Shown here in pieces: positions 29,176 to 57,075 of a stretch of DNA of 64,000 bases; positions within the stretch are counted from its first letter, which is position 1, and every line of letters begins with the position of its first letter. The translations under genes were made by a program, and so were the position numbers. Below the pieces are notes generated by a model. The model saw nothing but the letters and a program-made list of their open reading frames with translations, had not been told where the DNA came from and did not search any database. Location of the stretch: the NCBI GenBank assembly GCA_965227345.1, contig OZ245755.1, forward strand, positions 3,719,293 through 3,783,292, read 5' to 3'. The stretch comes from Sphingomonadales bacterium. Lineage in GTDB: Bacteria > Pseudomonadota > Alphaproteobacteria > Sphingomonadales > G965227345.

Positions 29176-29190
29176 CCAGCAAGACGAGGA

Positions 29191-30374: not shown

Positions 30375-30434
30375 TTTGCATTAAAGACGTAATGGGTCGC
30401 CATTTGGCCGCCCGGTGACAGGAAACAGAATAGT

Positions 30435-31274: not shown

Positions 31275-31277
31275 GCG

Positions 31278-33446: not shown

Positions 33447-33466
33447 CATTGACGATATGCTTGTTT

Positions 33467-33508
33467 GAAAACCCGCGCTTTTGCATGACAAAGGCGCGGG
33501 TTTTCTCT
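33467..33508 (+). terminator. intrinsic terminator after pal
   Basis: aaacccgcgc (33468-33478 region) pairs with gcgcgggttt (33494-33503) and is followed by ttttctct. Confidence 0.6.
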
Positions 33509-33626
33509 ATTCAGGACACAGAGGTTTATATGAATAGCGGCCATAGAGTTGCCAGAATGTACTGTCAGAATGAATTATATTAAGGTATCCCTTGGTTGAC
33601 ATTTCTGCTGCGAAGGATTTGAAAAG

Positions 33627-36694: not shown

Positions 36695-37981
36695 TTAACG
36701 TGACGACGTCGAAGCGGCAGGTGCCATATATTTAAGTGCTGGAATGTATCTGGATATGTGACGGAATATGCCATGTTCTTCGATCCACAAGGCATATGTG
36801 ACATAGGTGGGATCACGGGAGAGATGCTTTTCTTCCATTTTGGCCCTAAAGAAATAAATAGCATTGACCATCAGCAGAAGGCAGCAGTTCCTGAAAGCAT
36901 CTGTCATGCCTATGCCAGGAATAAAGGGAATGGAGATCAGCCACCAGGACAGGTTTTTGGAAATATAGGCCGGGTGTTTGGTGAATCTGAACGGGCCATT
37001 GGTCAGAATACCGCGGTGGGTAAGGTTTGAAAATCTCAGCCCGAACGTAACCGTGGCCCAACCATAGACGGCAACACAGGTCAAAATCAGAATGCCCCAG
37101 ATCATTTGCACGGATGGGTAGTTTTTAAGCCATCCCAGCCAGTTTATGGCATCTTCATATTTGAAATATTTCCCCGAAACCGCCGCCCAGAAAGGCGGGT
37201 AGCAGAGCAGCGTGACAAACCAGCCAAAAAAGAAGGGATGGCTGGATCTTATATGGGCGTCCACCAGACGCAGTGTCATGAGGTACCCGGCAACGGCAAA
37301 GATAAGATCAATATAATATAAAAAGTTCAGGCACCAGAAATAGGTGCCAATAAAAGTTTCTGATTGCACCTTGAACGGATGCGACATGAGCCAGCCGATA
37401 TTGTTGTTCAGGAATATCAGCATCAGGGGCAGAAAAAATGCCTTGATCGTCCAGCCCAGCCAGTGTTCCTTGAGTTTTGTGTAGTCCAGTGCACGCCATC
37501 GTCCCCATACAAGTTGCCCCATATGCCAGTACCCGTCTTTCGGCTGGATCATGTGGCTATCAACAAAAACAAAATAAGGTACAGCGAGCAGGATAAACCC
37601 GGGTAGAAACAATGGTGCCTTGTCAAGGAAGGGGTCATAAAAGTCAGTATTATATTCAGGCAATAGCCAATAGACAAAACTGATAATAGCCAGCGTGGCC
37701 AGAAGCCCCATAAGTTTGGTCAGGACGCGTTTTACATTTACCTGTAACGGGCGGGCGCTGGAAAAGTCCAGCCCCGTGGTAGGGCGACGGTAAACCTTCA
37801 GAAGAAACACTTCCCCGATCATTATGGGCAGGGCAGCCGCGAGCACACAGAATACGGCGGCGGCACCCCGGGAAATATCGCTTCCTGTTAGCAAAATAAT
37901 GGCGAGCGACCCGGAGAAAAAACCTGCGAGGTTAATGGCTGTATGAGTAACCGAGCCGGGTGGCTGTGGGGGCGCACGCAT
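36695..37981 (-). CDS. polytopic membrane protein with C-terminal ICMT/PEMT-type methyltransferase domain
   Basis: 428 aa with about 8-10 hydrophobic helices. The C-terminal motifs LTHRGILTNGPFRFTKHPAYISKNLSWW and RAKMEEKHLSRDPTYVTYALW match the isoprenylcysteine carboxyl methyltransferase family pattern (GxYxxxRHPxY ... EExxL...Y..Y). Confidence 0.7.
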   Translation of the reverse strand: MRAPPQPPGSVTHTAINLAGFFSGSLAIILLTGSDISRGAAAVFCVLAAALPIMIGEVFLLKVYRRPTTGLDFSSARPLQVNVKRVLTKLMGLLATLAIISFVYWLLPEYNTDFYDPFLDKAPLFLPGFILLAVPYFVFVDSHMIQPKDGYWHMGQLVWGRWRALDYTKLKEHWLGWTIKAFFLPLMLIFLNNNIGWLMSHPFKVQSETFIGTYFWCLNFLYYIDLIFAVAGYLMTLRLVDAHIRSSHPFFFGWFVTLLCYPPFWAAVSGKYFKYEDAINWLGWLKNYPSVQMIWGILILTCVAVYGWATVTFGLRFSNLTHRGILTNGPFRFTKHPAYISKNLSWWLISIPFIPGIGMTDAFRNCCLLLMVNAIYFFRAKMEEKHLSRDPTYVTYALWIEEHGIFRHISRYIPALKYMAPAASTSSR

Positions 37982-38064
37982 AAATTAAGTACCGATAAGT
38001 TCAGGCCGGGCACAGAATAGTCTGCCTAAACTGAATGCAGGCAAAGAAGTTATGCGTGCCAATA

Positions 38065-41000
38065 TCATTTCCGGCGCCGCCTTCTTGTGACGCCGTATGC
38101 CAGCCCTGCCAGCCCTGACCCGAATATGACCAGTGTCGCAGGGGTCGGAACTGTCCTTGGTGACAGCAAGGTTAGTGTCATGCTGTCGCCGCTACGGATT
38201 GGACTTAACCCGCCATAATAAAGGATATCCAGTGTCAGGATATAGCTGCCGGGCTCATCAAACAGGTCACCAAACAAAGAGGTATCCAGCCTGAAGGGCG
38301 TTGATCCGGTTGCAAAACCCAGGCTGACTGTATCAAGCAGCCATTCGATGGTGAAATCTTCTTCCAGCATCGGCGGGTCAATAGAACAGAGGCCCAGCTC
38401 ATCAAAGGTTGAGCCACAGAAATCCAGGTCAAATACATCGTCCATCAGGCCGATCTGGTCCGGACCGGCGTCTGCAACAAGAAGAGCCTCATTTCCACCA
38501 CCGCTCGAGGACGAGGTGTCTCCGCCACTCGAGGAGGAGGTGTCTCCGCCGCTGGAGGATGACGTGTCACCGCCGCTGGAGGATGACGTATCGCCGCCGC
38601 TCGACGATGACGTGTCCCCGCCGCTGGAGGATGATGTATCACCACCGCTGGAGGAAGATGTGTCCCCACCACTCGAGGATGATGTATCACCACCGCTGGA
38701 GGAAGATGTGTCCCCACCACTTGAGGATGAGGTGTCACCACCGCTTGAAGATGAGGTGTCTCCGCCGCTGGAGGATGACGTGTCCCCGCCGCTGGAGGAT
38801 GACGTATCGCCGCCGCTTGAGGAGGAGGTGTCCCCACCGCTGGAGGATGAGGTGTCACCACCGCTCGAGGACGAGGTATCACCACCGCTTGAAGATGAGG
38901 TGTCTCCACCGCTCGAGGACGAGGTGTCCCCGCCGCTGGAGGAGGAGGTATCGCCGCCGCCCGACGATGACGTGTCCCCGCCGCTGGAGGATGATGTATC
39001 ACCACCGCTGGAGGAAGATGTATCACCACCGCTGGAGGAAGATGTGTCCCCACCACTTGAGGATGAGGTGTCACCACCGCTGGAGGAGGAGGCATCACCA
39101 CCACTCGAGGAGGATGTGTCACCACCGCTTGAAGATGAGGTATCACCACCGCTGGAGGAAGATGTGTCCCCACCACTTGAGGATGAGGTGTCTCCGCCAC
39201 TGGAGGAGGAGGTATCACCACCGCTTGAAGATGAGGTGTCTCCGCCGATGGAGGATGACGTGTCACCGCCGCTGGAGGATGACGTATCGCCGCCGCTCGA
39301 CGATGACGTGTCCCCGCCGCTGGAGGATGATGTATCACCACCGCTGGAGGAAGATGTGTCCCCACCACTTGAGGATGAGGTGTCACCACCGCTGGAGGAA
39401 GATGTGTCCCCACCACTTGAGGATGAGGTGTCACCACCGCTGGAGGAGGAGGCATCACCACCACTCGAGGAGGATGTGTCACCACCGCTTGAAGATGACG
39501 TGTCACCGCCGCTGGAGGATGACGTATCGCCGCCGCTCGACGATGACGTGTCCCCGCCGCTGGAGGATGAGGTGTCACCACCGCTGGAGGAGGAGGCATC
39601 ACCACCACTCGAGGAGGATGTGTCACCACCGCTTGAAGATGAGGTATCTCCGCCGCTGGAGGATGACGTATCACCTCCGCTGGAGGAAGATGTGTCTCCA
39701 CCACTCGACGATGACGTATCACCGCCACTTGAGGTGTCGCCACCGCTGGAGGATGACCCGGAACTGCCGCCCGAAGATCCACCGGTATCTACCGGGCAGG
39801 TATCCTGGCCTTCTTCCAGCACGCAGTCTTCGTCTCCAGGAACGGCAGGTGTGGTGCCTCCGCTGCTGCTTGAGCTGCTGGTTGAACTGCCCCCGTCAAC
39901 GCCGCTGCTACTACTGCTGGTGCTACTACTGCCACCGCCGCCGCCGCCGAATCCGCCGCCCCCACCCGAGGAGCTTGAAGAGCTCGATGAACTCGAAGAA
40001 CTGGAGCTTGAAGAACTGGAGGTGCTGCCACTGGATGATATGAACGTAGCCCTGCCACCGCCAGCACCAGGTGCAGCAAAGTTATTTGCAAAGCGTGTGC
40101 GCGGCGAAGGATAATTGGCGAATTGCGAAATCGGGCTTTCGCCGAAATCATAGAATACGGGTGAACCTGCTGCTGTTTCAGTGCTTTCCAGAAGTGCCGC
40201 CAGACGATCCTGCAGGTCTTTTTCGATCTGCCCCAGATCAGAAGGACTGATCACCACTGCAGATATATATGTGTCACCTTCTGCAGGCGGGTCGAGTATA
40301 ATCTGAATGGTGTTGTCGCTGACAATTGCATGGGTTGACAGGATTTTTCCGGCAACTTCTTCGTTTGCAAAACTGATCAGGCGCGGGCCGTTCGCATCAC
40401 TTTGGCTGATCTGTTTGGAAATCTCGTTGATGCCGCCGGTGCCAAGCAATGCATAAGACCCGAAAGTTTCGTCTGTCAGATCGACAACCCGGACATCAGA
40501 GCCATTTGATCGCACGCCACTGCCAAAGGGGAATGAAGCTGTCGCAGGTTTTAGCGATGTTCCGGACAGCAGATAAATATTATAGATGCCAGCAGATCTG
40601 TTGGCTGAAAAAGATTCAACACGTTTGATGCCGTCGTTGACAAGGCCGCTGACGACAGTACCTTCAAAGGCTTCTGCATCAGGTCCCTTCACAGGTTCAT
40701 CTGCCGGGCCAACCCGCATGAATTCGCCATAAGCGCGTTTGCCGGCCGGTCCCAGATCCCACCCCTCGTCCCCGTCATTCAGGGCAAAGCCATCCTGCAT
40801 GAACAATGGCATTTCATATGCGGCCAATGCAGAATTTCTGAAGGCGTCCAGAATACGTTGCGCAGCTTGTGCAGCTTTGGGAAAGTCTCGCAATACGGAA
40901 TGACCGCCCATTGCGTCGGTCAGATCTTCAGCCAGAGACTTCAGCGCTTTGTCATTTCCCCCTGCAGTATCAAAATAAGCCTGTAGATCACGCAAACCTT

Positions 41001-41400
41001 CAGGCGTGCCTTCAATGGCACCGATCAGCGCCTGTTCTTTGGAAACAGCATGGTCAAGCCGGTTTGATGGCCTGGGCTTTTGTTTTGGCGTTGCCGGGTA
41101 AGAGGTGCGCAGGGCCTGTGGTGTATCAGCTTCTTGTGATGATGCGAAACGGGTCGGGTAGGGTTTGTTTTGTTTTTCAACAGTATCAGTACCCAAAGCG
41201 CCCGAGTTTGCGGAATCTTCTGCCAGCAACCTGTCAATATCAAGGGCACTATCGCCATTATCCGGCGACAGACTGTCCTGCTCTGACGGTGATATTGCGA
41301 CTTCCTCGACACTATAGCGCTGATAAAGCGTGGCGGTTGTGTAAATTCCCGTCAGCCCAAGCAGAGCACCAAGTACGACCAATATTTTCTGTGTCATCAT
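38065..41400 (-). CDS. PEP-CTERM-sorted, Ser-rich tandem-repeat surface protein (1111 aa)
   Basis: N-terminal signal/anchor MMTQKILVVLGALLGLTGIY. Poly-Ser and poly-Gly blocks precede about 52 GGDTSSSS repeats. The C-terminal sorting signal is VPTPATLVIFGSGLAGLAYGVTRRRRRK (P-x-P, a hydrophobic helix, then an Arg cluster). Confidence 0.85.
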   Translation of the reverse strand: MMTQKILVVLGALLGLTGIYTTATLYQRYSVEEVAISPSEQDSLSPDNGDSALDIDRLLAEDSANSGALGTDTVEKQNKPYPTRFASSQEADTPQALRTSYPATPKQKPRPSNRLDHAVSKEQALIGAIEGTPEGLRDLQAYFDTAGGNDKALKSLAEDLTDAMGGHSVLRDFPKAAQAAQRILDAFRNSALAAYEMPLFMQDGFALNDGDEGWDLGPAGKRAYGEFMRVGPADEPVKGPDAEAFEGTVVSGLVNDGIKRVESFSANRSAGIYNIYLLSGTSLKPATASFPFGSGVRSNGSDVRVVDLTDETFGSYALLGTGGINEISKQISQSDANGPRLISFANEEVAGKILSTHAIVSDNTIQIILDPPAEGDTYISAVVISPSDLGQIEKDLQDRLAALLESTETAAGSPVFYDFGESPISQFANYPSPRTRFANNFAAPGAGGGRATFISSSGSTSSSSSSSSSSSSSSSSSSGGGGGFGGGGGGSSSTSSSSSGVDGGSSTSSSSSSGGTTPAVPGDEDCVLEEGQDTCPVDTGGSSGGSSGSSSSGGDTSSGGDTSSSSGGDTSSSSGGDTSSSSGGDTSSSSGGDTSSSSGGDASSSSGGDTSSSSGGDTSSSSGGDTSSSSGGDTSSSSGGDTSSSSGGDASSSSGGDTSSSSGGDTSSSSGGDTSSSSGGDTSSSSGGDTSSSSGGDTSSSSGGDTSSSSGGDTSSSIGGDTSSSSGGDTSSSSGGDTSSSSGGDTSSSSGGDTSSSSGGDTSSSSGGDASSSSGGDTSSSSGGDTSSSSGGDTSSSSGGDTSSSSGGDTSSSGGGDTSSSSGGDTSSSSGGDTSSSSGGDTSSSSGGDTSSSSGGDTSSSSGGDTSSSSGGDTSSSSGGDTSSSSGGDTSSSSGGDTSSSSGGDTSSSSGGDTSSSSGGDTSSSSGGDTSSSSGGDTSSSSGGDTSSSSGGDTSSSSGGDTSSSSGGGNEALLVADAGPDQIGLMDDVFDLDFCGSTFDELGLCSIDPPMLEEDFTIEWLLDTVSLGFATGSTPFRLDTSLFGDLFDEPGSYILTLDILYYGGLSPIRSGDSMTLTLLSPRTVPTPATLVIFGSGLAGLAYGVTRRRRRK
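38497..39744. repeat. 24-bp coding tandem repeat array (about 52 units) with higher-order 144/240/360-bp duplications
   Basis: Period-24 units such as gtgtctccgccgctggaggatgac and gtatcaccaccgctggaggaagat. The 60-nt line starting at 39061 is identical to the one starting at 39421 (360 bp apart), and part of it recurs at 39565 (144 bp further). Confidence 0.95.
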
Positions 41401-41444: not shown

Positions 41445-42875
41445 CTAATTTCGTCCGTACGTATCATCAAATCGGACGATATCATCTTCACCAAGGTAAC
41501 CGCCGGATTGCACCTCGATGATGTGGAGCGGTATTTTGCCTGGATTTTCCAGTCTGTGTGTCGCTCCAATTGCAATATACACTGATTCATTCTCGTGGAG
41601 AACAAATTTTTCATCATCGCGGGTGACGCTGGCCGTGCCCTGGACGACAACCCAATGCTCGGCCCGGTGGTGGTGCTTTTGTAAGGAAAGCTTTTCTCCG
41701 GGGTTAACAACCAGCCTTTTAACCTGAAAACGATCACCGGCATCAGTAGTCTGGTAGTTGCCCCAGGGTCGATAGACTATTGTGTGCGATATATGCTCCT
41801 GTCGTCCGGAATGTTCAAGTTTTTCAACAACCTGTTTAACATCCTGGGCATATTTCTTGTCTGCCACCAGGACGGCGTCCTTGGTGGCGACAACAATTAC
41901 ATTTTGCAGACCAACCGTCGCGACCGCCGGGCCTTCTGTCCGCACAAGTGAATTGTGTGTATTCACGTTAAGAACATCGCCGTGCAACACATTACCATCG
42001 CTGTCTTTTTCGCCAATATCCCATAATGCGGTCCAGGATCCGACGTCATTCCAGCCCATATCAACAGGAACAACTGTTGCGGCGGCTGTTTTTTCCATTA
42101 CAGCGTAATCAATGGAATTGGCAGGGCAAGGCAGAAACGCATCAGCGTCGGGGCGCAGGAAAGAAAGGTCTTTCTGGCTATTTTGCATGGCTTTGGTACA
42201 GGCTGCGACAATTTCCGGCTCGTGGCGTTCAAGTTCATCCATATAGGCGCGGGCCGGAAAAAGGAACATGCCGCTGTTCCAGTAATAATCACCGGAGGCA
42301 ATATAAGTTTCTGCCGTTGCCAGATCAGGCTTTTCAACGAACCTTTTGACTTTAAAGCAGTTTTCTCCGCCCGGGATAGAGTCGCCTTTTTGGATATAGC
42401 CATAGCCTGTTTCCGGGCTCGACGGCTTGATGCCAAAGGTTGCAAGGGCTCCGTTGCCTGAGACTGCGCTTGCAGCCTGTCGAATGGCATGATGAAAGGC
42501 ATCAAGATCATTAATCACATGATCAGAGGGCATAATCAGCATAACGCCATCAGGATCCTGCTCAAGAACAAACAGGGCTGCCAAGGCTGCAGCCGGTGCT
42601 GTATTGCGGCCAGCAGGCTCAAGAATAATGGATTCAGGAGTTATTTTTTCCTGACGCAACTGCTCGGCAATAATAAAGCGGTGCTCGTTATTGGCGATGA
42701 TCGTCGGGCGGGCAAACATATTGCCGCCGAAAACGCGCAACGCGGTTTCCTGCAGCATGGTCCTGTTTCCGGCCAGCGGCAGCAATTGCTTGGGGTAGTG
42801 GGCACGGGACAAAGGCCACAGCCGCGTGCCGGAACCCCCGGACAATATTATCGGCCAAATCTTGCGACTGATCAT
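41445..42875 (-). CDS. manC: mannose-1-phosphate guanylyltransferase / mannose-6-phosphate isomerase (bifunctional, ManC/XanB type)
   Basis: 476 aa. ILSGGSGTRLWPLSR (NTP-transferase) and a C-terminal cupin (RPWGNY...HHHRAEHWVVVQGTA...GEDDIVRFDDTYGR). Confidence 0.9.
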   Translation of the reverse strand: MISRKIWPIILSGGSGTRLWPLSRAHYPKQLLPLAGNRTMLQETALRVFGGNMFARPTIIANNEHRFIIAEQLRQEKITPESIILEPAGRNTAPAAALAALFVLEQDPDGVMLIMPSDHVINDLDAFHHAIRQAASAVSGNGALATFGIKPSSPETGYGYIQKGDSIPGGENCFKVKRFVEKPDLATAETYIASGDYYWNSGMFLFPARAYMDELERHEPEIVAACTKAMQNSQKDLSFLRPDADAFLPCPANSIDYAVMEKTAAATVVPVDMGWNDVGSWTALWDIGEKDSDGNVLHGDVLNVNTHNSLVRTEGPAVATVGLQNVIVVATKDAVLVADKKYAQDVKQVVEKLEHSGRQEHISHTIVYRPWGNYQTTDAGDRFQVKRLVVNPGEKLSLQKHHHRAEHWVVVQGTASVTRDDEKFVLHENESVYIAIGATHRLENPGKIPLHIIEVQSGGYLGEDDIVRFDDTYGRN

Positions 42876-46080: not shown

Positions 46081-48870
46081 ATGAGATCAGGAATATTGAA
46101 AAACACTCTGGCACTTTGTTTCATGGCATTGTCACTTGCCTTGATATCTGCATGCGATTCCGAACCAACCTATACCATTGAGCAACATCTGGTCCGGGCC
46201 AAGGATTTCCGGTATCAGGGTGATTTGAGATCTGCTGTCATCGAACTCAAAAACGCGCTTCGAAAAGATGCCGATAATGGCCCGGCCAGATTCATGCTGG
46301 GGGAAGTTTACCTTGATGTCGAGAATGGTGCAGCGGCCGAAAAGGAAATAGAGCTGGCGCTTGAAAATGGTATGTCCTCGGTCGAAACACGGGTGATGCT
46401 TGGACAGTCATGGCTTTTACAGGGCAAGTTTCAGGAAGTTTTGGATGAATTCCCTGACGATGGACTGGTGGGCAAGAATGCGGCGTTCAGGCAATTACGC
46501 GGGGATGCCCTGCGGGGACTGAAAAAACATGACGAAGCCGTCGTGGCGTATGAAAGAGCCCTGGCAGCAAATCCAAACGATCTGGGAAGCATTATCGGAT
46601 TGTCGAATATTGCTCTGGTCCGTAGAGAATATGCAGAGGCCGCAAACTATCTGGAACGCGCCGAGACGGTCGCACCCAATCATACCAAGGTTTATGCCTT
46701 AAGAGGTGATATCGCGATGGCGACCCGGCGCTTTGACGAGGCTGTAGAGGCCTATGACGCGCTGGCCAAGGCCAGGCCAGACAGCCTCTATTATCGCGTC
46801 GCGCTGGCGCAGGCGCTGTCACAGTCAGGACAGGTTGAACAGGCCATCGCCAATCTCGACAAGGTTCTGGCATCTGCGCCTTCGTTCGGACTTGCCAATC
46901 AGGTTATGGCGCAGGTGCTGCTCTCAAAACATGAATTTCAGCGCGCCAGAGCTCATGCAGAGCGGGCACTGACTGCCAATGAAAATAACCAGCGGGCATT
47001 GCTGATTGCGGGCACAGCGAGTATGGGTCTGGAAGAACTGGAACGCGCCAATTCCTATTTAAGCCGTTATGTTGCATTGGTGCCAGATAGTGTCTCCGCC
47101 CGAAAATTGCTGGCACGGGTTCAAACACAGCTGGGCAAGGGTAACGAAGCGCTGGAAACATTGGATCCTTTGGCAAAAAAAATGGGTGACGATATCGAGG
47201 TCCTCGCCTTGTTGTCAGAGGCATCGGTGTCTCAGGGCGATTATGATCAGGGTGCCGAATATCTGGCCCGGTCGCTCCAGCTCCAGCCCGATAATGCGGA
47301 ATTGGCTATTAAGCTGGGCATGGCTGAAATTAAGGGTGGGTCTGTCAAGAAGGGGATTGAGCATCTGGAAAAAGGTGTCGCCCTTAATCCTGTTTCGATT
47401 GGCAATCATGTAGCCCTCATTGAAGCGCTGCTCGGTGCCAGACAGTATGAAAGTGCATTAAAGAAAGGAAGAAATCTGGCCAAGACAGTGCCGGATAGCC
47501 CGGCAGGACATATTATGTCGGGCATGAGTTTGCTTGCCCTTGGCCGAAATGACGAAGCCGAAAAATCATTCCGCGAAGCGCTGGCCATTAATCCGGGAAA
47601 TCCGGTCGCCGCTGTAAAGCTTGCAAATGTTCTGGAAGCTCGCAAGCAATATGCTGAAGCAGAATTGGTCTACAAGTCAATTTTGACAACAGACAGGACC
47701 CACCTGGAATCCATGTTAAGGCTCGCGTCTTTGGCAGAGAAGCAGCAAAGGGGAGACGAGGCGCTGGACTGGTTGCAGCGCGCAGTGTCGATTTATCCGG
47801 AGGAACTGGCCCCCAGTCTTATTCTTGCGGCCGAATACATGAAAAGAGGCGAATATGACAGGTCACTGGCAGTCTCACGAAAAATCCAGACCACCTATCC
47901 TGATCATCTGCGTCTGTTGTCTGTTGTCGGAACATCCGAATTAAAGTCCGGGCAGGTGGACAAGTCGATCGGGACGTTTGAACGGCTTGTCGCCCTGGAT
48001 CCGTCATCTGCCCAGGCATTATTTACCCTGTCGCAGGGATATGCAGAACTGGGAGACTGGGAGAAGGTCCGGGGGGTACTGTTAAGGCTTGAATTGCTGG
48101 ACCCGGATCATGAAGGCGCAAAGTTTCAGTGGCTAAGGGTTTATGGCAATACGGGCGATATGGCACGTGCGAAGGTTCTGGCGGCTGATCTGGAGAAAAA
48201 GTATCCCAATTCACCGCAGCTTATGCTCGCGCTGGGGGATCTTGCCATGAAGCGCGAGGAACCGGCTAAAGCCACGGATTTTTACGCGCGTTATCTTGGC
48301 CAGCGACGTGATGGTCCCGTTGTTCTGAAACTCGCCCGCGCGCAATCGGAATCCGGCGCGCCAAAGGCGGCTGAAAATACTCTGGCGACATGGTTGAGGC
48401 ATGAACCGGACGATCATCAGGCACGGGCCCTGTTTGCGTCGATCCTTCTGGATGACGGACAACTGGACAAGTCCGAACAGGAATATTTGCGTCTTTCGAC
48501 CGAGCCGTCATATGCAGTTATGGTCAATAATAATCTGGCCTGGATATATCTGAAACAGAACCGGATGGACAAGGCCGTGATGTTTATTGAGCGTGCCATC
48601 GAAAAAGCGCCGAATAACAGGCAGGTTCTTGATACCGCCCATAAAGTCTATAGTGCTCAGGGCAACAACTGGAAGGTGATTTCCATCTTGTCGGCTCTTG
48701 TTGAGCAGGAGCCGGACAATGATCAGGCTCGCATTGATCTCGCTGTGGCCCTTGTTGATATCGGGCAGAAGGAACAGGCACTGGATGTTATCAGTCGGAT
48801 ATCTGTCAAAAACCTCTCTCATGCTCAGCAGAAAAAGCTGGATCAGATGAAGCTTGCGCTATCGGACTAG
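46081..48870 (+). CDS. prsT: PEP-CTERM system TPR-repeat lipoprotein (PrsT-like), copy 1
   Basis: 929 aa. Lipobox LALISAC, then TPR repeats along the whole length. Size and context (next to epsB/prsK/prsR) fit PrsT. Confidence 0.75.
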   Translation: MRSGILKNTLALCFMALSLALISACDSEPTYTIEQHLVRAKDFRYQGDLRSAVIELKNALRKDADNGPARFMLGEVYLDVENGAAAEKEIELALENGMSSVETRVMLGQSWLLQGKFQEVLDEFPDDGLVGKNAAFRQLRGDALRGLKKHDEAVVAYERALAANPNDLGSIIGLSNIALVRREYAEAANYLERAETVAPNHTKVYALRGDIAMATRRFDEAVEAYDALAKARPDSLYYRVALAQALSQSGQVEQAIANLDKVLASAPSFGLANQVMAQVLLSKHEFQRARAHAERALTANENNQRALLIAGTASMGLEELERANSYLSRYVALVPDSVSARKLLARVQTQLGKGNEALETLDPLAKKMGDDIEVLALLSEASVSQGDYDQGAEYLARSLQLQPDNAELAIKLGMAEIKGGSVKKGIEHLEKGVALNPVSIGNHVALIEALLGARQYESALKKGRNLAKTVPDSPAGHIMSGMSLLALGRNDEAEKSFREALAINPGNPVAAVKLANVLEARKQYAEAELVYKSILTTDRTHLESMLRLASLAEKQQRGDEALDWLQRAVSIYPEELAPSLILAAEYMKRGEYDRSLAVSRKIQTTYPDHLRLLSVVGTSELKSGQVDKSIGTFERLVALDPSSAQALFTLSQGYAELGDWEKVRGVLLRLELLDPDHEGAKFQWLRVYGNTGDMARAKVLAADLEKKYPNSPQLMLALGDLAMKREEPAKATDFYARYLGQRRDGPVVLKLARAQSESGAPKAAENTLATWLRHEPDDHQARALFASILLDDGQLDKSEQEYLRLSTEPSYAVMVNNNLAWIYLKQNRMDKAVMFIERAIEKAPNNRQVLDTAHKVYSAQGNNWKVISILSALVEQEPDNDQARIDLAVALVDIGQKEQALDVISRISVKNLSHAQQKKLDQMKLALSD

Positions 48871-49232
48871 ACGTTCTTAACCGGACCGGATTCCAGACCC
48901 CGCTACTCTGTATATTTAACGCCGGTTTTTGTATTATACGGAATATAAATGATATTTTCCAATCTTGAGCATCAGGCTGGAATAAAATGGACGCAAGAAT
49001 AGTAGCAGGGTATTCATGTGCCGGAAGAATGACTGTTCATGAAAATTCATCAGATAATTTTATGGAATTTTAACGCACATCGACGATGATCGCCTTATGT
49101 TTGGCGTAATATGAACAAAATATGGTCGACTTTGTTATTTAGGAATAGCTGAATTGAGACAACAGGTTAATGTCTGTGATCCAGCTGGAATGACATGTCG
49201 TGCAAGGCAGGAAAAGGCCGCTCGGAAGAGAA

Positions 49233-50627
49233 ATGATTAGAATATTCAAACACTATATCCCTCAATCTGTGTTCTTTCTTGGGCTTGCCGAGATTGTCAT
49301 CCTGTTTTTGGCAATTCAGGGTGCTCTTAAGCTGCGATACAATCAGCTTAATCTTGGGTCCATCAAACTGGATGAACACATTGCTGAGGTTTGTGTTTTT
49401 GTTGGCGTCGTTTACGTCGCGATGCTGGCTGTTGGTGTTTATCGGCTGGAAACGTGCCGCGATTTGCGGGTGACCATTTTAAGGCTGGTTATCGCCTTGC
49501 TTGTCAGCTTCATTCTGATGAGTGTGATTTTCTATATTTTTCCTACAATTGACATCTGGCGCAGTGTTTTCACCATTGCCCTGTCGCTGGGGCTTGCGGG
49601 CATTCTGATTGCGCGGATTGTCTTTATCCAGGTCGTTGATATTAGCCGGTTCAAGCGCCGCGTACTGGTTCTTGGTGCCTCAAGACGTGCGGCACGAATT
49701 GAAAATTTGTCGAATGAGAGTGCGGGGCAGAATTTTACCTGCGTGGGCTTCGTCGCCATGGGGCGGGCGCCGGTGGCGGTTGGTGCTGCCGAAAAGTGCT
49801 TTGATTATGAAGAAGGCAAGTTGCAAGAGTTGTGCGAGCGTCTCAGGGTGGACGAAATTGTTGTCGCGATAGAAGAGCGCAGGGGTACCTTGCCGGTTAG
49901 TGATTTGCTTGATGCCAAAATCAGCGGCATCAAGGTACTGGACAGTACAACCTTTCTGGAGAGAGAGACCGGTGTTGTGGATCTTGACTCTGTCAATCCG
50001 AGCTGGCTCATATTTTCAGACGGATTTGGTCAGGGCGGGCAGATTGATCTTATGTTCAAGCGCCTTTTTGATATATTCGTCAGTGTTCTGATTCTTTTGT
50101 TAACAGCGCCGATTCTGATCTTTGCAGCTATCGCCGTTAAAGTGACCAGCCCTGGCCCTGTTTTTTATATGCAAGATCGCGTGGGCTTTAACGGGCGCGT
50201 TTTTTCGGTCATGAAATTTCGCAGCATGCGGAATGACGCCGAGAAGGACGGGCCGGTCTGGGCACAGCAGGGTGACGCGCGTGTAACACCCGTGGGGCGA
50301 TTTATCCGGGCGACCAGAATTGATGAGATACCGCAGATTTTTAATGTCTTAATGGGCCATATGAGTTTTGTTGGTCCGCGGCCCGAAAGACCGTTTTTTG
50401 TGGAATCCCTGGAGGCTGATATTAATTTTTATCAGGAACGCCACAGAGTGAAGCCTGGAATTACTGGCTGGGCCCAGATTAATTACCCCTATGGTGCCTC
50501 GGTTGAAGATTCCCGACGCAAACTTCAATATGACCTGTATTATATCAAGAATTATTCGGTATTTCTGGACTTTCTCATCCTTGTGCAAACTGTCAGGGTG
50601 ATTATCTGGCCGGATGGTGTGCGATAA
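49233..50627 (+). CDS. polyprenyl glycosylphosphotransferase (EpsB-type sugar transferase, PEP-CTERM system-associated)
   Basis: Start MIRIFKHY (atg at 49233). Four or five N-terminal TM helices and a C-terminal bacterial sugar-transferase domain (KRLFDIFVS...SPGPVFYMQDRVG...KFRSM...DEIPQIFNVLMGHMSFVGPRP). Confidence 0.85.
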   Translation: MIRIFKHYIPQSVFFLGLAEIVILFLAIQGALKLRYNQLNLGSIKLDEHIAEVCVFVGVVYVAMLAVGVYRLETCRDLRVTILRLVIALLVSFILMSVIFYIFPTIDIWRSVFTIALSLGLAGILIARIVFIQVVDISRFKRRVLVLGASRRAARIENLSNESAGQNFTCVGFVAMGRAPVAVGAAEKCFDYEEGKLQELCERLRVDEIVVAIEERRGTLPVSDLLDAKISGIKVLDSTTFLERETGVVDLDSVNPSWLIFSDGFGQGGQIDLMFKRLFDIFVSVLILLLTAPILIFAAIAVKVTSPGPVFYMQDRVGFNGRVFSVMKFRSMRNDAEKDGPVWAQQGDARVTPVGRFIRATRIDEIPQIFNVLMGHMSFVGPRPERPFFVESLEADINFYQERHRVKPGITGWAQINYPYGASVEDSRRKLQYDLYYIKNYSVFLDFLILVQTVRVIIWPDGVR

Positions 50628-50697
50628 CCTGTTTTAAATCAGGAGGACCGGGACCATCGAAATTGCTGTTGGCTCCATAACTTATAGTATTGCCGCA

Positions 50698-52779
50698 TTG
50701 GCATATCTGGCGTTGGGCGCTCTGCTGATTGCCAGCTGGAAAAAAAGCGGGCCAGGAACCTGGCTGATCGTGGCGGCATTTTGCACGTTTGTCTGGGCAC
50801 TGGTCAATACGGTGGCTTTTTTGTGGCCAGGGCTTTCCAGAATACTGGGGCCTTTTGCTGAAACACTGCGATATGCAGGATGGATTATTTTTCTGTCCAG
50901 CCTTCTGGCGCAATACTGGAGAACCGTCGATAAACATGCCCAAAGCCGCGGTATTATTATTGCGGTCATAGCAGGGTGTGTCTTTGCCTTCAGTATGGAC
51001 CTTCTGCTGGTTCTTGAGAATTTGAACATTCTTGAGCCTTACGCGATTGTCCCGCAGATAATATTACTGGAGCGGATGGCGCTGGCTGTTGCCGGCGCGT
51101 TTCTTGTGGATAATTTATACAGAAATACAGCGCTGCATAATCGCTGGAGCATCAGACTGTTGTGTTTGGGTCTGGGTGGCATTTTTGTTTTTGATTTCCT
51201 GTTTTATGCCGATGCGGTTTTGTCCAAGAGCTTTAGTGGAGCTCTTTACGAGGCGCGCGGGGCCGTGAATGCGCTGGTTGTGCCGCTGGTTGCTGTCTCT
51301 GCGGCCCGCAATCCCGGCTGGTCGCTGGATGTTTTTGTGTCGCGGGGTGTGGTTCTGCATTCGGCATCGCTGATCGGCAGCGGTGTTTATCTTGTGGTCA
51401 TGGGTGTAGCAGGCTTTTACCTGCGCGATATGGGAGGGCGCTGGGGCGTCCTGTTGCAGGTCAGTTTCTGGTTTGGCGCCTTGATGTTGTTGTTTGTCAC
51501 CATCTTTTCGGGCCAGTTCAGGGCTCAGCTCCGGGTGATGGTGAACAAGCATTTCTTCAATTATAAATATGATTACAGGGAAGAATGGCTGCGGTTCATT
51601 CAGACTGTATCGTCAAGCGATTATGCAGAAGGGTTGCGCGAACGTGTAATCAAGGCCATGGCTGATATTGTCGATAGTCCCGGGGGTGCCCTGTGGATGA
51701 CAGAGGAACCGAACTGGTTTAGTCAGATTGCCGTCTGGAATTTACGTTCCAACATCAATGGTGTCGAACCCCGGTCCAGTGATTTTTGTAAATTTCTCGA
51801 GGATAGACACTGGATTATTGATCTGGATGATGTGGACCCTGAAACCGGTGTGTTTGAAGGGGCGCATGTACCACAGTGGCTGCGGGATGATCCTCGCGCC
51901 TGGTTGATCGTGCCCCTTATTCATCATGGACAATTAAGTGGCTTCATTATGCTGGAGCGGCCAAGAGCGGTTAAAGAACTTAACTGGGAAGATTTTGACC
52001 TGTTTAAAACTCTGGGTATTCAGGTGGCCAGCTATCTTGCGGAACAGGATAATGAGAAGGCGCTGGCGGAGGCTCGGCAATTCGAGGCCTTTAACCAGAG
52101 ATTTGCGTTTATCATGCATGATATTAAAAATCTGGTCAGTCAGTTGTCGCTGCTGGCGAGCAATGCAGACAAGCATGCGGGCAACCCTGAGTTTCAAAAG
52201 GATATGGTGCTTACCGTCAAGGAATCGGTGGGCCGGATGAACCAGTTGCTGACCAAACTTAATACTATGAGTGAGACAACAGCCACCCGCAAGGAAGTTT
52301 TGGAAGTCACAGGTTTGCTGAACGGGTTGCTGGTTCGGCTTGCAAAAGGAACAGACAAACTTAATTTTGAGATACCGGAAGGAAAAATTAACGTGCAGGC
52401 TGATACTGTACAGCTTGAAACCGTTTTTTCTCATGTCATTTCAAATGCACTGGAGGCTGTTTCAGATATTGGCCGTGTAACAGTCAGCTTGTCATCTGAA
52501 AATGATAATGTTTCTATCAGGGTCGAGGATAACGGGCCGGGAATGAGTCGGGAGTTTATTCGGGATGAACTTTTCAAGCCGTTCAAGTCTACCAAGGAGA
52601 CGGGCTATGGCATTGGGGCCTACGAAAGCAGGCAGCTGATCCGGAACTTTGGGGGGCATCTGGGTGTGGAAAGTATTGAGGGCAAGGGAACAACGGTTAC
52701 GATAAAGTTGCCAGTATGGATAGAACCCGCCCAGGAATTGCAGCAGGGGAGTGCTATCCCCGAAAGTGTAAAGAGTTAG
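50698..52779 (+). CDS. prsK: PEP-CTERM system histidine kinase (PrsK-like)
   Basis: About 690 aa. Multi-TM N-terminal half, a GAF-like segment, H-box FIMHDIKNLV and an ATPase domain (DNGPGM...GYGIGAYESR). The frame is open upstream to 50638 behind an AGGAGG at 50641-50646, so the N-terminus may be longer. Confidence 0.8.
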   Translation: MAYLALGALLIASWKKSGPGTWLIVAAFCTFVWALVNTVAFLWPGLSRILGPFAETLRYAGWIIFLSSLLAQYWRTVDKHAQSRGIIIAVIAGCVFAFSMDLLLVLENLNILEPYAIVPQIILLERMALAVAGAFLVDNLYRNTALHNRWSIRLLCLGLGGIFVFDFLFYADAVLSKSFSGALYEARGAVNALVVPLVAVSAARNPGWSLDVFVSRGVVLHSASLIGSGVYLVVMGVAGFYLRDMGGRWGVLLQVSFWFGALMLLFVTIFSGQFRAQLRVMVNKHFFNYKYDYREEWLRFIQTVSSSDYAEGLRERVIKAMADIVDSPGGALWMTEEPNWFSQIAVWNLRSNINGVEPRSSDFCKFLEDRHWIIDLDDVDPETGVFEGAHVPQWLRDDPRAWLIVPLIHHGQLSGFIMLERPRAVKELNWEDFDLFKTLGIQVASYLAEQDNEKALAEARQFEAFNQRFAFIMHDIKNLVSQLSLLASNADKHAGNPEFQKDMVLTVKESVGRMNQLLTKLNTMSETTATRKEVLEVTGLLNGLLVRLAKGTDKLNFEIPEGKINVQADTVQLETVFSHVISNALEAVSDIGRVTVSLSSENDNVSIRVEDNGPGMSREFIRDELFKPFKSTKETGYGIGAYESRQLIRNFGGHLGVESIEGKGTTVTIKLPVWIEPAQELQQGSAIPESVKS

Positions 52780-52792
52780 ACAGGTCAGGAAT

Positions 52793-54148
52793 ATGGCAGA
52801 AGAGAAAGAAAAATTATTGATTGTCGAAGATGATCCCGGTCTTCAGCGGCAGTATCGCTGGAATTTTGGTGATTATGATGTCCTTCTTGCCGGGGACGCA
52901 AAAGAAGCGATCACGTTGTTGCGGGCCAATTCGCCCAAGGTGGTGACTTTGGATTTGGGATTGCCGCCAGATCCTGACGGCACGACGGAAGGCTTCGCTG
53001 TTCTGGAAGAAATATTACGGCTTTCTCCGACGACAAAAGTCATTATGGCATCCGGGCATGGCGCGCGCGAAAGCGCATTGCAGGCGATTGCCATGGGGGC
53101 TTATGACTTCTATCAGAAGCCTGTTGATTCTGATGAATTGGGACTCATTGTGCGCCGGGCATTTCATGTTCAGGCGCTGGAGGAAGAAAACAGGGTATTG
53201 CAGAGTCAGGGGCAAAAAACACCGTTGACCGGCCTGATCACCGGTTCGCCGGAGATGATCAAGATTTGCCAGATGATTGAACGTGTTGCGCCGACCAGTG
53301 TTGGTGTGATGCTGCTGGGGGCCAGCGGTACGGGCAAGGAATTGCTGGCGCGTGGTCTTCATGAAATGAGTGCGCGCAAGAACAAGCCGTTTGTTGCTAT
53401 TAACTGTGCCGCTATTCCGGAAAATTTGCTGGAAAGTGAATTATTCGGGCATGAAAAAGGTGCGTTCACCGGGGCGATCAAGCAAACGCAGGGCAAGATT
53501 GAGCTGGCAGAAGAAGGCACGCTTTTTCTCGACGAAATTGGCGATATTCCTTTTCCGCTTCAGGTGAAGTTGCTGCGTTTTCTGCAAGAACGAGTCATAG
53601 AGCGCATTGGCGGCCGCAAGGAAATTCCTGTTGATGTGCGCATCGTATGCGCGACCCATCAAAATTTGGAGCGGCTTATTGCCGAGGGAGGTTTTCGGGA
53701 GGATCTGTTCTACAGGTTGAGCGAAATCTCGATTGATATTCCGCCATTGAAAGATCGCAAGGGTGACCCGGCTTTGCTGGCACACAGTTTTCTGGCAAAA
53801 TTCAATAAAGAGCACAAGCGCAACGTCAAGGGCTATTCTCCTGATGCCCTGTCGGCGTTGGCGGCGCACGAGTGGCCGGGAAATGTTCGCGAACTTGAAA
53901 ATAAAATAAAACGCGCTGTCATTATGGCCGAAGGTCAAAGAATTACCGCCGCTGATCTGGGGCTTGGTGACGGGGGCGAAACTTCTGCTATACTGAACCT
54001 TAAACAGGCGCGTGAAGAAGCGGACAGAAAGGCTTTGCAAACAGCTATTGCAACATCGGATGGCAATATATCTCAGGCGGCCAAAATACTGGGTGTGAGC
54101 CGCCCCACGCTTTATGATTTGATGAAACAATATAATATTAATGTGTAA
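52793..54148 (+). CDS. prsR: PEP-CTERM-box sigma-54-dependent response regulator (PrsR-like)
   Basis: 451 aa. Receiver ([10 protein letters not shown]...DLGLPPD), AAA+ ([25 protein letters not shown]) and HTH ([10 protein letters not shown]). Confidence 0.85.
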
Positions 54149-54222
54149 ACATTAAAGTGTAATTGAAATTGAGTGCCGGATCGGTCCGGCATTGCAAAAT
54201 GGGCAAACAAGGGATTTTTCAT

Positions 54223-57075
54223 ATGAAACAGAAACTGACAACAAGCGCCAAGGTGTTTTCCTCCCTCGCTGTGCTGGCGATGCTTTCCGGGCCAGCCCTG
54301 TCGCCGACACTTGTTCTGGCAAAATCTGCTTCTGAAAAGTCAGTGGGTTTTGTCGAAAAGGCGAAAGAGCATTTTGACAAGGGCGACTGGCGGTCTGCGT
54401 CGATTGAGCTCAAAAATGCCCTGCAGGCCGATGCCGACAATGTCGATGCACGTATTCTGCTGGGCGATGTTTATCTGAAGACGTATAACGGCCCTTCAGC
54501 GGAAAAAGAATTCCGGGCGGCAATGAAGCGAGGTGCCGGCAAGAAAGAAATGCTCATTCGCCTGGGCCAGGCATATGAACTGCAGCGCAAGTACAACGAA
54601 ATTCTGTCGGAAATTAAACCTGAAGCTGTTGCTGAAGAAGACACAGGGCAGGCCTTGCTTCTGCGGGGCAATGCATATCTGGGTCTGAAAGATGTGGATA
54701 ATGCTGTTGCCTCCTATCGTGAGGCGCAGGAGAAATCACCCGAGAATCCGGATGTTTATTCCGGGCTTGCCCGGGTATATCTGTTGAAGCGTGAACAGGA
54801 TCAGGCTCTTGAAGCTGTAGACAAGGCCCTGAAGCTTGACCCCGGAAATCTGGATGCTCTTATGATCAGGGCAGAAGTCAGTCGTGTTAAATCAGACTTT
54901 GATGAAGCGCTGACCTATCTTTCTGCAGCTGTTGATGTCAGTCCCGATTATATGCCAGCCCTGTTGGGGCGGGCATCGGTTCTGGTGGAATTGGCCCGTG
55001 ACGAAGAAGCAAAAGCTGACATCGACCGGATTTTCAAACTTTCGCCTGACTATCCGATGGGTCATTATCTGAACGCCCGGATAAAATGGCGCGCCAGAGA
55101 TGTTGAAGGCGCTTCCGAAGCTCTTCAGAAAACCGGACAGAATCTTGATAATTTCCTGCCGGCCATTTTTCTGAAGGGGCTGGTTAATTTTGCCCAAAAT
55201 AATGAGGAACAGGCGGCTTTTCATCTTTCACGCGTAATTGAATATGCGCCTAATCACATTGGTGCACGTCGGGTTCTGGGAATGACATTATTGCGCCAGA
55301 ATGAACCCAGCAAGGCAATACGTACCCTGCAGCCAATTGTGGATAGCGGCTTAAAAGACGGCAAGGTCTTTTCAATGATGGGCTATGCTTATATGAAACT
55401 TGGTGAACTGGATCAGGGCGCCAGGTATTTCGATATGGCCGTAGAGGCAGATCCGGAAGAAAGTTCCAACAAAACCCGCCAGGCTGTAAGCAAGATGGCG
55501 CTGGGTGAGTTTGACACCGCAATTGATACGCTGGAGGGTGTTGTTAAGGATGACCCGGAATCATTGCAGGCCGCGATCATTCTAAGTCTGGCAGAGTTGA
55601 AGCGCGGTGATCTGGATAGCGCCCTGACATCCGTGCAGGCCTTGAAGAAAAAATTTCCGGATAGCGCGTCTGGCCCGTATATCGAGGGCGAAATTTATAT
55701 GCGGAAGAAAGACCTTCCTGCAGCGCGCAAGGCATTCGAGCAGGCGCAAAAGCTGAACACGGAAGCTGACTCTGCAACCATGAAGCTTGCTGCAATTGAT
55801 ATTGCAGAAGATAAGATCGCCCAGGCCCGCGAGAAATATAATGAAATTCTTGCCAAAAAGCCTGACCATGTTCCGGCGATGATGAATATGGCACGACTTG
55901 CGCGGGCTGAAGGGGATGACAAGGCATTTGTATCCTGGCTTGAAAAGGCTTCAGCTGCTGCGCCTGACAATATGACACCTGGCCTGGCCCTCGTAGAGAT
56001 ATACACATCACAGAGAGAGTTTGAGAAGGCTCTTGGTCTTGCCAATAGCCTGACGCAACAACATCCTGATAAACCCATCGCTTTTGAAGCACTGGGGAAA
56101 GTGCAGGCGGCAAAAGGGGATGCAGCAGCAGCCCTGGCGACTTTTGAGCGAATGGTGAGTATGGATACAAGCAATCCGGCGGCCTATCATCTGTTATCGC
56201 GGACGGAAATGGTTGCAGGCGAGAAATTTGCGGCATCAGAATCTCTCCACAAGGCTCTTGAAATTGCTGCCCCGGCCAAATCCTTGCAGGACGATGCGGG
56301 GCGCCTGGGTACACCATTGACCTTGCTGCTGGATTTGATTGACCTGAGACTCAGCAGTGGAGAAAGCAAGGAAGCGCTGGATGCCGTCAAGGAACTGGAG
56401 AAGAGATATCCCGAGGCACCTGTTGGTGATATTGCCCGGGGCAATATTTATCTTGCGGATGGCAAGGCGGATGAGGCTGTCGCCCAGTTCGAGAAAGCAA
56501 CAGAAAAAGGCGCTTCCAACGCAGCGCTATCCATTAATTTCTATCGTGCCTACAAGGCGCAGGGAAACAAGGCCAAGGGTGTAAAGGTCCTGGAAGAATG
56601 GCTGGCATCGAACGAAAACGACCAGATGGTTCAGGGCGTGCTCGCGGCGATTTATCTGGAAGACGGGCAGTATGAAAAGTCAACAGCCCTGTATGAGAAG
56701 CTTACGAAGAGTTCGCCGAATAATCCGGGTTATTTGAATAATCTGGCCTGGCTGTATCAGGAAGCGAAAAATCCCGAGGCGTTGGAAATGGCGCGTCGTG
56801 CCAACCGGCTGGCACCGGAAGCGCCTGAAATCATGGATACATACGGGTGGATATTGTTGCAAAATGGCCAGGACAAAGACGCACTTGAGCAGCTGCGACG
56901 CGCCGCTATCCTGAAACCGGACCTGGCGGAGATTAAATACCATCTGGCTGTCGCCTTGCATAAAAACGGCAAGACTGCAGAAGCAAGACGTGAATTGCAG
57001 GGCCTGTTGAACTCTGGCGCTCAATTCCCGGGCGTGGAAGACGCCCGCAAGCTGATGGACGAAATATCCAAATAA
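54223..57075 (+). CDS. prsT: PEP-CTERM system TPR-repeat protein (PrsT-like), copy 2
   Basis: Start MKQKLTTSAKVF (atg at 54223) with a signal peptide. About 950 aa of TPR repeats. The N-terminal region parallels copy 1 (HFDKGDWRSASIELKNALQADADNVDARILLGDVYL versus FRYQGDLRSAVIELKNALRKDADNGPARFMLGEVYL). Confidence 0.75.
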   Translation: MKQKLTTSAKVFSSLAVLAMLSGPALSPTLVLAKSASEKSVGFVEKAKEHFDKGDWRSASIELKNALQADADNVDARILLGDVYLKTYNGPSAEKEFRAAMKRGAGKKEMLIRLGQAYELQRKYNEILSEIKPEAVAEEDTGQALLLRGNAYLGLKDVDNAVASYREAQEKSPENPDVYSGLARVYLLKREQDQALEAVDKALKLDPGNLDALMIRAEVSRVKSDFDEALTYLSAAVDVSPDYMPALLGRASVLVELARDEEAKADIDRIFKLSPDYPMGHYLNARIKWRARDVEGASEALQKTGQNLDNFLPAIFLKGLVNFAQNNEEQAAFHLSRVIEYAPNHIGARRVLGMTLLRQNEPSKAIRTLQPIVDSGLKDGKVFSMMGYAYMKLGELDQGARYFDMAVEADPEESSNKTRQAVSKMALGEFDTAIDTLEGVVKDDPESLQAAIILSLAELKRGDLDSALTSVQALKKKFPDSASGPYIEGEIYMRKKDLPAARKAFEQAQKLNTEADSATMKLAAIDIAEDKIAQAREKYNEILAKKPDHVPAMMNMARLARAEGDDKAFVSWLEKASAAAPDNMTPGLALVEIYTSQREFEKALGLANSLTQQHPDKPIAFEALGKVQAAKGDAAAALATFERMVSMDTSNPAAYHLLSRTEMVAGEKFAASESLHKALEIAAPAKSLQDDAGRLGTPLTLLLDLIDLRLSSGESKEALDAVKELEKRYPEAPVGDIARGNIYLADGKADEAVAQFEKATEKGASNAALSINFYRAYKAQGNKAKGVKVLEEWLASNENDQMVQGVLAAIYLEDGQYEKSTALYEKLTKSSPNNPGYLNNLAWLYQEAKNPEALEMARRANRLAPEAPEIMDTYGWILLQNGQDKDALEQLRRAAILKPDLAEIKYHLAVALHKNGKTAEARRELQGLLNSGAQFPGVEDARKLMDEISK

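Follow-up and report, generated by a model that had tools for sequence, protein, structure and literature searches.

A long ICMT-like membrane methyltransferase and its recurrent serine-rich surface-protein neighbours

Why should the gene of a membrane methyltransferase lie directly behind that of a secreted repeat protein ending in a PEP-CTERM-like sorting tail? The question is raised by a stretch of 64,000 nucleotides from a Sphingomonadales bacterium (contig OZ245755.1, positions 3,719,293 to 3,783,292; hereafter the window), in which a minus-strand gene at 36695..37981 encodes ICMT-L, our name for a long ICMT-like membrane methyltransferase (ICMT, isoprenylcysteine carboxyl methyltransferase), immediately downstream of the gene of a large Ser/Gly/Asp/Thr-repeat protein, the cargo. 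An initial annotation of this DNA had proposed either that the enzyme methylates the C-terminus released by exosortase or that it modifies a lipid acceptor. The present analysis of ICMT-L, of its homologues and of their genomic surroundings establishes a statistically solid link, covering part of the family, between this enzyme and both Ser-rich surface proteins (PEP-CTERM cargo included) and a GT-C glycosyltransferase. As an explanation we put forward, tentatively and as somewhat short of probable, that ICMT-L methylates a lipid-anchored precursor whose later role would be to decorate or anchor Ser-rich surface proteins.

The link emerges from 98 homologous loci that, together with the window, amount to 99 loci and about 1 Mb of sequence; loci and homologous proteins carry our own L and P numbers, and lineages are clusters at 65% identity, of which the final set holds 54. 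A scan of genome contigs with a single weak protein query gave 4 loci. In the enrichment test, which took all stop-to-stop open reading frames (ORFs) of at least 100 amino acids from 92 loci (about 0.9 Mb) and counted as immediately upstream those ending within 600 nt upstream of ICMT-L on the same strand, Ser/Gly-rich ORFs accounted for 10 of 147 immediately upstream ORFs, compared with 9 of 3048 elsewhere (odds ratio 24.6, p = 2e-9), and PEP-CTERM-like tails for 5 of 147, compared with 2 of 3048 elsewhere (p = 4e-6). One of those two stray tails is a composition artefact and the other belongs to the second tandem gene of L088; every convincing PEP-CTERM tail otherwise lies directly upstream of ICMT-L, on the same strand. 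A Ser/Gly-rich or PEP-CTERM-like upstream neighbour is present in 12 of the 74 loci with enough upstream sequence in the unbiased sample (8 of 42 lineages), and in 18 loci of 11 lineages in the final 99, nine of which have a PEP-CTERM-type gene directly upstream. In a rough tree these associations, and those with the GT-C enzyme described below, fall in several separate branches.

Conservation of the pair itself points in the same direction. In all five of the related loci (L005, L092, L093, L094 and L095), where ICMT-L is 49-60% identical, an orthologous Ser/Gly/Thr-repeat cargo with a PEP-CTERM-like tail is encoded directly upstream, with gaps between the two genes ranging from a 4-nt overlap (L092) to 100 nt; the 4-nt overlap is found also in L096. 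The cargo orthologues of L005, L092, L093 and L095 share 28-36% identity in their N-domain and 36-50% in their C-domain. The best named relative is Govanella unica (Emcibacterales; L005), which, like L093, keeps the order TP_methylase, manC, cargo, ICMT-L, and the genes that follow the cargo-ICMT-L pair differ among the related loci. After the pair, L092 (2048-5753) and L095 (2157-6317) carry wecB (UDP-GlcNAc 2-epimerase-like), a GT2 synthase-like gene and NfrA_C/TPR polysaccharide genes, a set resembling an Nfr-type exopolysaccharide secretion module.

Elsewhere in the family the upstream protein is of a different kind. In L021 it is an XDD4-family PEP-CTERM protein unrelated to the window cargo, in L057 another unrelated PEP-CTERM protein, and in L088 two tandem genes encode VPLPA-type tails, the proximal one being a confirmed VPLPA-CTERM. 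In L087, L091 and L096 the position is occupied by small proteins that have a signal peptide and consist of (SSGSSG)n or (GGASS)n repeats, with no PEP-CTERM tail. In one lineage (L029, L030, L062 and L083) it is held by two-partner-secretion exoproteins of about 2,000 amino acids (FHA-type, with Ser/Gly repeats), whose genes meet ICMT-L in a stop-start overlap or within about 50 nt; in L030 (1777-11236) a ShlB-type TpsB gene precedes that of the exoprotein, and one upstream TpsA neighbour has a TIGR01901 domain. Chitinases with poly-Ser linkers, which like the exoproteins lack the tail, are found there in Microbulbifer. Judging from the domain matches and signal peptides, the upstream neighbours look like genuine genes. 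The adjacency to PEP-CTERM genes from which the initial annotation had started thus recurs well beyond chance and is kept throughout the closest relatives; it is not specific to PEP-CTERM proteins, most loci being devoid of such a neighbour and many having no PEP-CTERM gene within 10 kb.

The other recurrent partner is a PMT-like GT-C membrane protein of 420-455 amino acids (PMT_2 or PMT; PF13231 or PF02366), which adjoins ICMT-L in 16 of the 99 loci, from 5 lineages. Its gene may be upstream, downstream or divergent, abutting or overlapping that of ICMT-L (L003/L004), and in one protein (P0121) the GT-C and ICMT-L parts are fused. In L009 and L097 the genes of the GT-C enzyme, of ICMT-L and of a poly-Ser secreted protein stand together. 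In the periplasm, enzymes of the PMT/ArnT type draw on polyprenyl-phosphate sugars for the glycosylation of secreted proteins rich in Ser/Thr or of lipid A. When about 800 flanking ORFs were clustered, no universal conserved neighbour emerged, only the GT-C partner and lineage-specific synteny. In L072 (11143-12555), L078 (11287-12699) and L085 an S-adenosylhomocysteine hydrolase gene is convergent with ICMT-L, in a lineage that also has a divergent GT-C partner. The Ser/Gly-rich and PMT-like partners of ICMT-L are undescribed in the literature and family libraries that we searched.

As regards the enzyme, the 428-residue polytopic protein of the initial annotation is a real ORF on the minus strand, both of its signature segments (GPFRFTKHPAYISKNLSWW and RAKMEEKHLSRDPTYVTYALW) lie within the translation, and an identical protein is on record (P0001). 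A plus-strand gene over the same interval was rejected, its translation being broken by stops. The methyltransferase signature was confirmed by a Pfam profile search, in which residues 311-388 match PF04140 (ICMT) with 27.8 bits, over the cut-off of 24; PF04191 (PEMT) scores 23.7 bits, under its cut-off of 25, and PF06966 (DUF1295) 16.7 bits, below threshold. Both ICMT and PEMT models are matched (E < 0.01) by all 29 aligned homologues, and no NCBIfam family, including any exosortase-associated or equivalog model, is matched by ICMT-L at E <= 0.1. Within the S-adenosylmethionine (SAM) module, R316, F317, S318, N319, T321, R323, G324, G329, H336, P337, Y339, K342, W347, R379, E383, E384, H386 and D390 are invariant in the 29 sequences. 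ICMT-family proteins are defined by an R/K-H-P-x-Y motif and an acidic E-E-x-x-L helix near the C-terminus, and ICMT-L has the corresponding cofactor-type motifs in KHPAY (residues 335-339) and EEKHL (383-387).

The alignment contains 46 invariant columns, with both halves of the protein well conserved. The N-terminal half is a predicted six-helix domain specific to this family, with the conserved motifs RRPSTGLD, YWxFPEY, PxDGYW, LGWxVKAFFLPLM and TLRLxDxHIRSxEP. That this multi-transmembrane region is unassigned, as first noted, holds in a wider test, since ten family members gave no consistent Pfam match at E <= 10; assignment to a known family such as exosortase or CPBP was rejected on these grounds, and a duplication of the ICMT fold was rejected as well, the hhalign probability against the C-terminal half being 0.5%. 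A search of 1.84 billion representatives with the N-domain returned 772 matches, nearly all proteins of 410-460 amino acids, and the domain is therefore almost always fused to an ICMT module. The AlphaFold2 model of ICMT-L (pLDDT 82.6, pTM 0.82) contains about ten helices. ICMT-L is, judging from these profiles and motifs, an architectural variant within the known ICMT/PEMT superfamily, a predicted two-domain membrane methyltransferase.

The family is large, with more than 3,188 clusters at 90% identity among 5.8 billion proteins searched, and its best 120 homologues are 43-60% identical in full-length alignments. The sources include Alphaproteobacteria, Gammaproteobacteria and Myxococcota, among others, and the genome scan added Verrucomicrobiia relatives; where annotated at all, the homologues bear no more specific name than "isoprenylcysteine carboxyl methyltransferase family protein" or "Ste14". 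Longer homologues are rare: besides the PMT_2 glycosyltransferase fusion P0121, P0186 and P0233 end in a PF00144 (beta-lactamase/serine hydrolase) domain, which is predicted to be periplasmic because an extra transmembrane helix precedes it.

Topology bears directly on what such an enzyme could act upon. By the positive-inside rule, the loops carrying RRPSTGLD, PxDGYW, RLxDxHIRSxEP and the GPxRxxKHP cofactor loop are rich in K/R, and the alternate loops contain 0-1 K/R; the conserved N-domain motifs, the SAM site and both termini of ICMT-L are accordingly predicted to be cytoplasmic, in keeping with SAM being a cytoplasmic cofactor. We propose that ICMT-L would be a SAM-dependent methyltransferase of the inner membrane in which the N-domain most likely forms the site for a membrane-embedded substrate. 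On the cytoplasmic face it would methylate a lipid-anchored precursor of the envelope at an anionic or amino group; candidate precursors are a sugar or glycan carried on polyprenyl phosphate and a head-group lipid. The methylated precursor would then be flipped to the periplasm, where a GT-C glycosyltransferase or an exosortase might use it to glycosylate or anchor Ser-rich surface proteins such as the cargo. This lipid-anchored-precursor model seems to us the most economical, because the recurrent partners unite Ser-rich secreted proteins with a glycosyltransferase class that uses polyprenyl-phosphate sugars. The presence of manC, a GDP-mannose synthesis gene, in the operon-like cluster of the window also supports lipid-linked glycosylation, as do the polysaccharide genes (wecB, GT2, NfrA_C) behind the pair in L092 and L095. 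Bacterial members of the superfamily can act on lipid-anchored envelope molecules, lipid A being methylated at its 1-phosphate by the Ste14-like LmtA (PMC4402001). A second fitting precedent comes from archaeosortase, a homologue of exosortase: its processing requires PssA and PssD, enzymes of ethanolamine-lipid synthesis, and an ethanolamine-lipid nucleophile has been proposed as acceptor (PMC7157517).

A bolder version of this proposal, which we regard as speculative and unlikely, would make the ICMT-L family a missing component of surface-protein maturation, responsible for cytoplasmic methylation of a lipid-linked donor or acceptor for exosortase or GT-C enzymes, with a polyprenyl-phosphate sugar and an ethanolamine lipid as candidates. 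If true, it would name the chemistry of the long-sought exosortase acceptor, or a new O-glycan modification. ICMT-L next to the cargo offers that question a concrete gene and a concrete chemistry, namely SAM-dependent methylation of a membrane-anchored molecule. Even with an indirect PEP-CTERM link, a family this large (over 3,000 clusters at 90% identity, 772 representatives at 50%) that carries a new N-terminal domain makes a good candidate for an envelope-modification enzyme of a new kind.

Several observations weigh against the lipid-anchored-precursor model. Superfamily membership, domain architecture and recurrent partners follow from the results above, and the nature of the substrate is something we infer. 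Foldseek searches of the PDB with the full model and with a separate C-terminal model returned noise and no ICMT entry, and sequence-profile searches of the PDB found none either. The window holds no homologue of the GT-C partner. Either partner is seen in only 16 of the 54 lineages, most loci having neither, and the association could therefore concern a subset of the family or be indirect. Poly-Ser linkers being common in genomes of the Cellvibrionales type, the Microbulbifer, L009 and L097 pairings may have arisen by chance. Several of the added loci (L092-L096) were selected as kin of positive cases, which makes 12 of 74 the unbiased figure. Co-transcription, finally, is read solely from short gaps and a missing terminator. 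In the 83-nt gap between cargo and ICMT-L and the 44-nt gap between manC and cargo, neither a terminator-like nor a sigma-70-like promoter site was called, and no intrinsic terminator was found between the cargo and ICMT-L genes, the 83-nt spacer folding modestly (-28.7 kcal/mol, z = -2.2) with no U-tract. ICMT-L is probably co-transcribed with manC and the cargo on this basis, as is also favoured by the overlapping genes in relatives. There is no sigma-54 promoter ahead of ICMT-L or the cargo, window-wide matches being at chance level; a sigma-54-like site at 38166-38180, in the 3' end of the cargo gene, was rejected because its one mismatch breaks the GG dinucleotide, which is critical in sigma-54 promoters.

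The C-terminal reaction of the initial annotation, in which ICMT-L would methylate the new carboxylate of the cargo after exosortase cleavage just as ICMT acts after CaaX proteolysis, draws on membership in the ICMT superfamily and on the recurrence of the gene right behind PEP-CTERM genes, seen independently three times (in the window clade, in L021/L057 and in L088). Haft et al. (2006) had indeed drawn the CaaX analogy for the protease step of exosortase, and EpsH fusions to CAAX-protease domains are on record (PMC1569441). The catalytic residues of exosortase and the PEP motif are, however, predicted on the outer face of the inner membrane (PMC1569441), and carboxyl methylation of the C-terminus made there is disfavoured because the active face of ICMT-L is predicted to be cytoplasmic. 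A transpeptidase mechanism would, moreover, leave no free carboxylate; many partners have no C-terminal anchor, as in the Ser/Gly-rich neighbours of L087, L091, L096, L029, L030 and L083, and other family members, paired with a GT-C enzyme, lack a PEP-CTERM neighbour. The papers that we searched for ICMT with PEP-CTERM or exosortase, myxosortase papers included, contain no ICMT-like link, only the CaaX analogy of Haft et al. (2006; PMC1569441). We consider this reaction very unlikely, while the annotation's other option, modification of a lipid acceptor, is compatible with the evidence. In its specific form, ICMT-L would modify the lipid nucleophile of exosortase (the amine of phosphatidylethanolamine or of a related amino-lipid) and so tune or gate anchoring. 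PEMT-type chemistry targets precisely that amine, a cytoplasmic active site, as predicted here, would suit it, and it draws as well on the PEP-CTERM adjacency and on the archaeosortase requirement for PssA/PssD with its proposed ethanolamine-lipid acceptor (PMC7157517). Since it leaves unexplained both the neighbours without PEP-CTERM tails and the GT-C fusion, this form appears improbable.

A further alternative, unlikely on balance although with a sizeable chance of being correct, is that ICMT-L is a general lipid methyltransferase unrelated to the cargo, acting by PEMT-like N-methylation of phosphatidylethanolamine or by LmtA-like methylation of a lipid A phosphate, and that the genes are adjacent because they share an envelope or biofilm regulon or form an ArnT-like pair for lipid A modification. 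The absence of any surface-protein or GT-C neighbour in 38 of 54 lineages, in contexts that vary widely, would fit this well, as would the S-adenosylhomocysteine hydrolase gene adjoining ICMT-L in the L072/L078 group and the fact that the PEMT model matches every family member nearly as well as ICMT does. LmtA offers a precedent, and ArnT, a lipid A modifier, is a GT-C of the partner's broad kind (PMC4402001). The enrichment is, on the other hand, position-specific (immediately upstream, same strand, with stop/start overlaps), which is hard to obtain from shared regulation alone, and the pair stays together at 49-60% identity despite changing surroundings; the PEMT score of the window protein is also under the Pfam cut-off, and no NCBIfam equivalog model is matched. 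The chemistry of the superfamily is versatile, and a small-molecule or detoxifying membrane methyltransferase placed here by chance might resemble the thiol methylase MddA, which belongs to the ICMT family. MddA is bound to the membrane and depends on SAM for methyl transfer (PMC5607357). A large conserved N-terminal membrane domain and non-random neighbours would not be expected of such an enzyme, and we give this explanation hardly any credence.

At its N-terminus the cargo has a hydrophobic signal or anchor, followed by a domain of some 470 amino acids with no family match, a long stretch of (SSSSGGDT)n repeats, a C-terminal domain of about 110 amino acids and the PEP-CTERM-like tail, TVPTPATLVIFGSGLAGLAYGVTRRRRRK, which is the sole tail of this type in the 64-kb window. 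The initial designation of the cargo as a PEP-CTERM protein stands only in part: the 34-residue tail exceeds the TIGR02595 cut-off when scanned alone, but the full-length protein is matched by no Pfam or NCBIfam model, TIGR02595 included, and the motif reads VPTP and not VPEP. Across the window, L005, L092, L093 and L095 the signature of the tail drifts through VPTP, IPVP, IPAP, ISEP and ASPG (the last in L095), and we may be dealing with a separate PEP-CTERM subtype or with one in decay. The 24-nt repeat also generates by-product ORFs at 38348-40114 (+), 38409-40043 (+) and 38445-39782 (-, in another frame), of 588, 544 and 445 amino acids. Gene callers could take such repeat-derived ORFs for genes, as the public gene calls of L093 do, missing its 1015-residue cargo.

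The coordinates of the features are collected in Table 1; the ORF map and the TIGR01479 match bear out the order manC, cargo, ICMT-L on one strand and a cargo gap of exactly 83 nt, as first described. At 8-19 kb from ICMT-L, a complete XrtA/PEP-CTERM regulatory block (46081..57075, plus strand) comprises PrsT, a TIGR03013 glycosyltransferase, PrsK, PrsR and a second PrsT. Among the ORFs of the window that were scanned, none was identified as an exosortase gene.

Table 1. Features of the ICMT-L locus and of the PEP-CTERM regulatory block in the window
Feature	Position	Strand	Basis
ICMT-L gene (428 aa)	36695..37981	-	ATG-to-stop ORF
ICMT/PEMT-type SAM-binding module (aa 311-388)	36818..37051	-	Pfam PF04140
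N-terminal six-helix domain (aa 1-244), family-specific	37250..37981	-	29-sequence alignment
Spacer between cargo and ICMT-L	37982..38064	-	83 nt
Cargo gene (1111 aa)	38065..41400	-	ORF translation
PEP-CTERM-like sorting tail LLSPRTVPTPATLVIFGSGLAGLAYGVTRRRRRK	38068..38169	-	TIGR02595, 19.0 bits (cut-off 16, E = 0.0017), 34-aa tail scanned alone
Tandem array, 24-nt units encoding SSSSGGDT (52.8 copies, 79% matches)	38496..39756	.	Tandem Repeats Finder
manC (mannose-1-phosphate guanylyltransferase / mannose-6-phosphate isomerase)	41445..42875	-	TIGR01479, 712 bits; 44 nt upstream of cargo gene
PrsT	46081-48870	+	NCBIfam, 625.9 bits, above cut-off
TIGR03013 glycosyltransferase	49200-50627	+	557.1 bits, above cut-off
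PrsK	50698-52779	+	NCBIfam, 714.1 bits, above cut-off
PrsR	52793-54148	+	NCBIfam, 716.3 bits, above cut-off
PrsT (second)	54163-57075	+	NCBIfam, 726.1 bits, above cut-off

Around the cluster, the gene 144 nt downstream of ICMT-L (34595-36550, minus strand) encodes a 651-residue protein with a DUF2336/SpbR-like N-terminus, weak PAS matches and a HisKA domain, in which no HATPase_c domain was detected; it is not kept downstream of ICMT-L in relatives. Directly to the left of the locus, on the plus strand, is a housekeeping block (25576-34547) composed of a YebC-family regulator, ruvA, ruvB, a thioesterase, tolQ/tolR-like genes, tolB, a pal-like OmpA and a ybgF-like TPR gene. A 325-residue ORF at 44927-45904 (minus strand) matches no Pfam or NCBIfam family and is weakly similar (25% over 140 amino acids) to the gene at the equivalent position of Govanella unica.

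Set beside known systems, ICMT-L shares with ICMT/Ste14p (PF04140; eukaryotic and archaeal) a C-terminal module over the Pfam cut-off, motifs of the HP-Y and EE-x-L type and an integral membrane character, its own cofactor site being predicted cytoplasmic, but it is roughly double the size of minimal members, and its N-terminal domain of 244 amino acids is unique. We know of no CaaX-prenylated proteins in bacteria, and its substrate must therefore differ from that of ICMT. PEMT/Opi3 (PF04191) belongs to the same superfamily, with matches in 29 of 29 ICMT-L homologues, whereas ICMT-L itself is under the cut-off, carries the extra N-terminal domain and has genomic partners that are not housekeeping genes. 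The PMT/PMT_2 GT-C enzymes, which resemble the recurrent partner and not ICMT-L, are tied to this locus only through the homology of the methyltransferase. With the accessory genes of XrtA/PEP-CTERM and of ArtA-PssA/PssD, ICMT-L has in common its location beside a PEP-CTERM cargo, PrsK, PrsR and PrsT being encoded in the same genome, as well as the precedent of lipid-synthesis enzymes in archaeosortase processing (PMC7157517); unlike them, it is not confined to PEP-CTERM neighbourhoods and matches no exosortase-associated NCBIfam model. No lipid A gene neighbours were seen at ICMT-L loci, which sets it apart from LmtA of Leptospira interrogans. LmtA is nevertheless, as far as its description allows the comparison, a bacterial SAM enzyme of the same superfamily working on a lipid-anchored envelope molecule (PMC4402001), and by this analogy it provides the best functional precedent for the methylation of a lipid precursor that we propose for ICMT-L.

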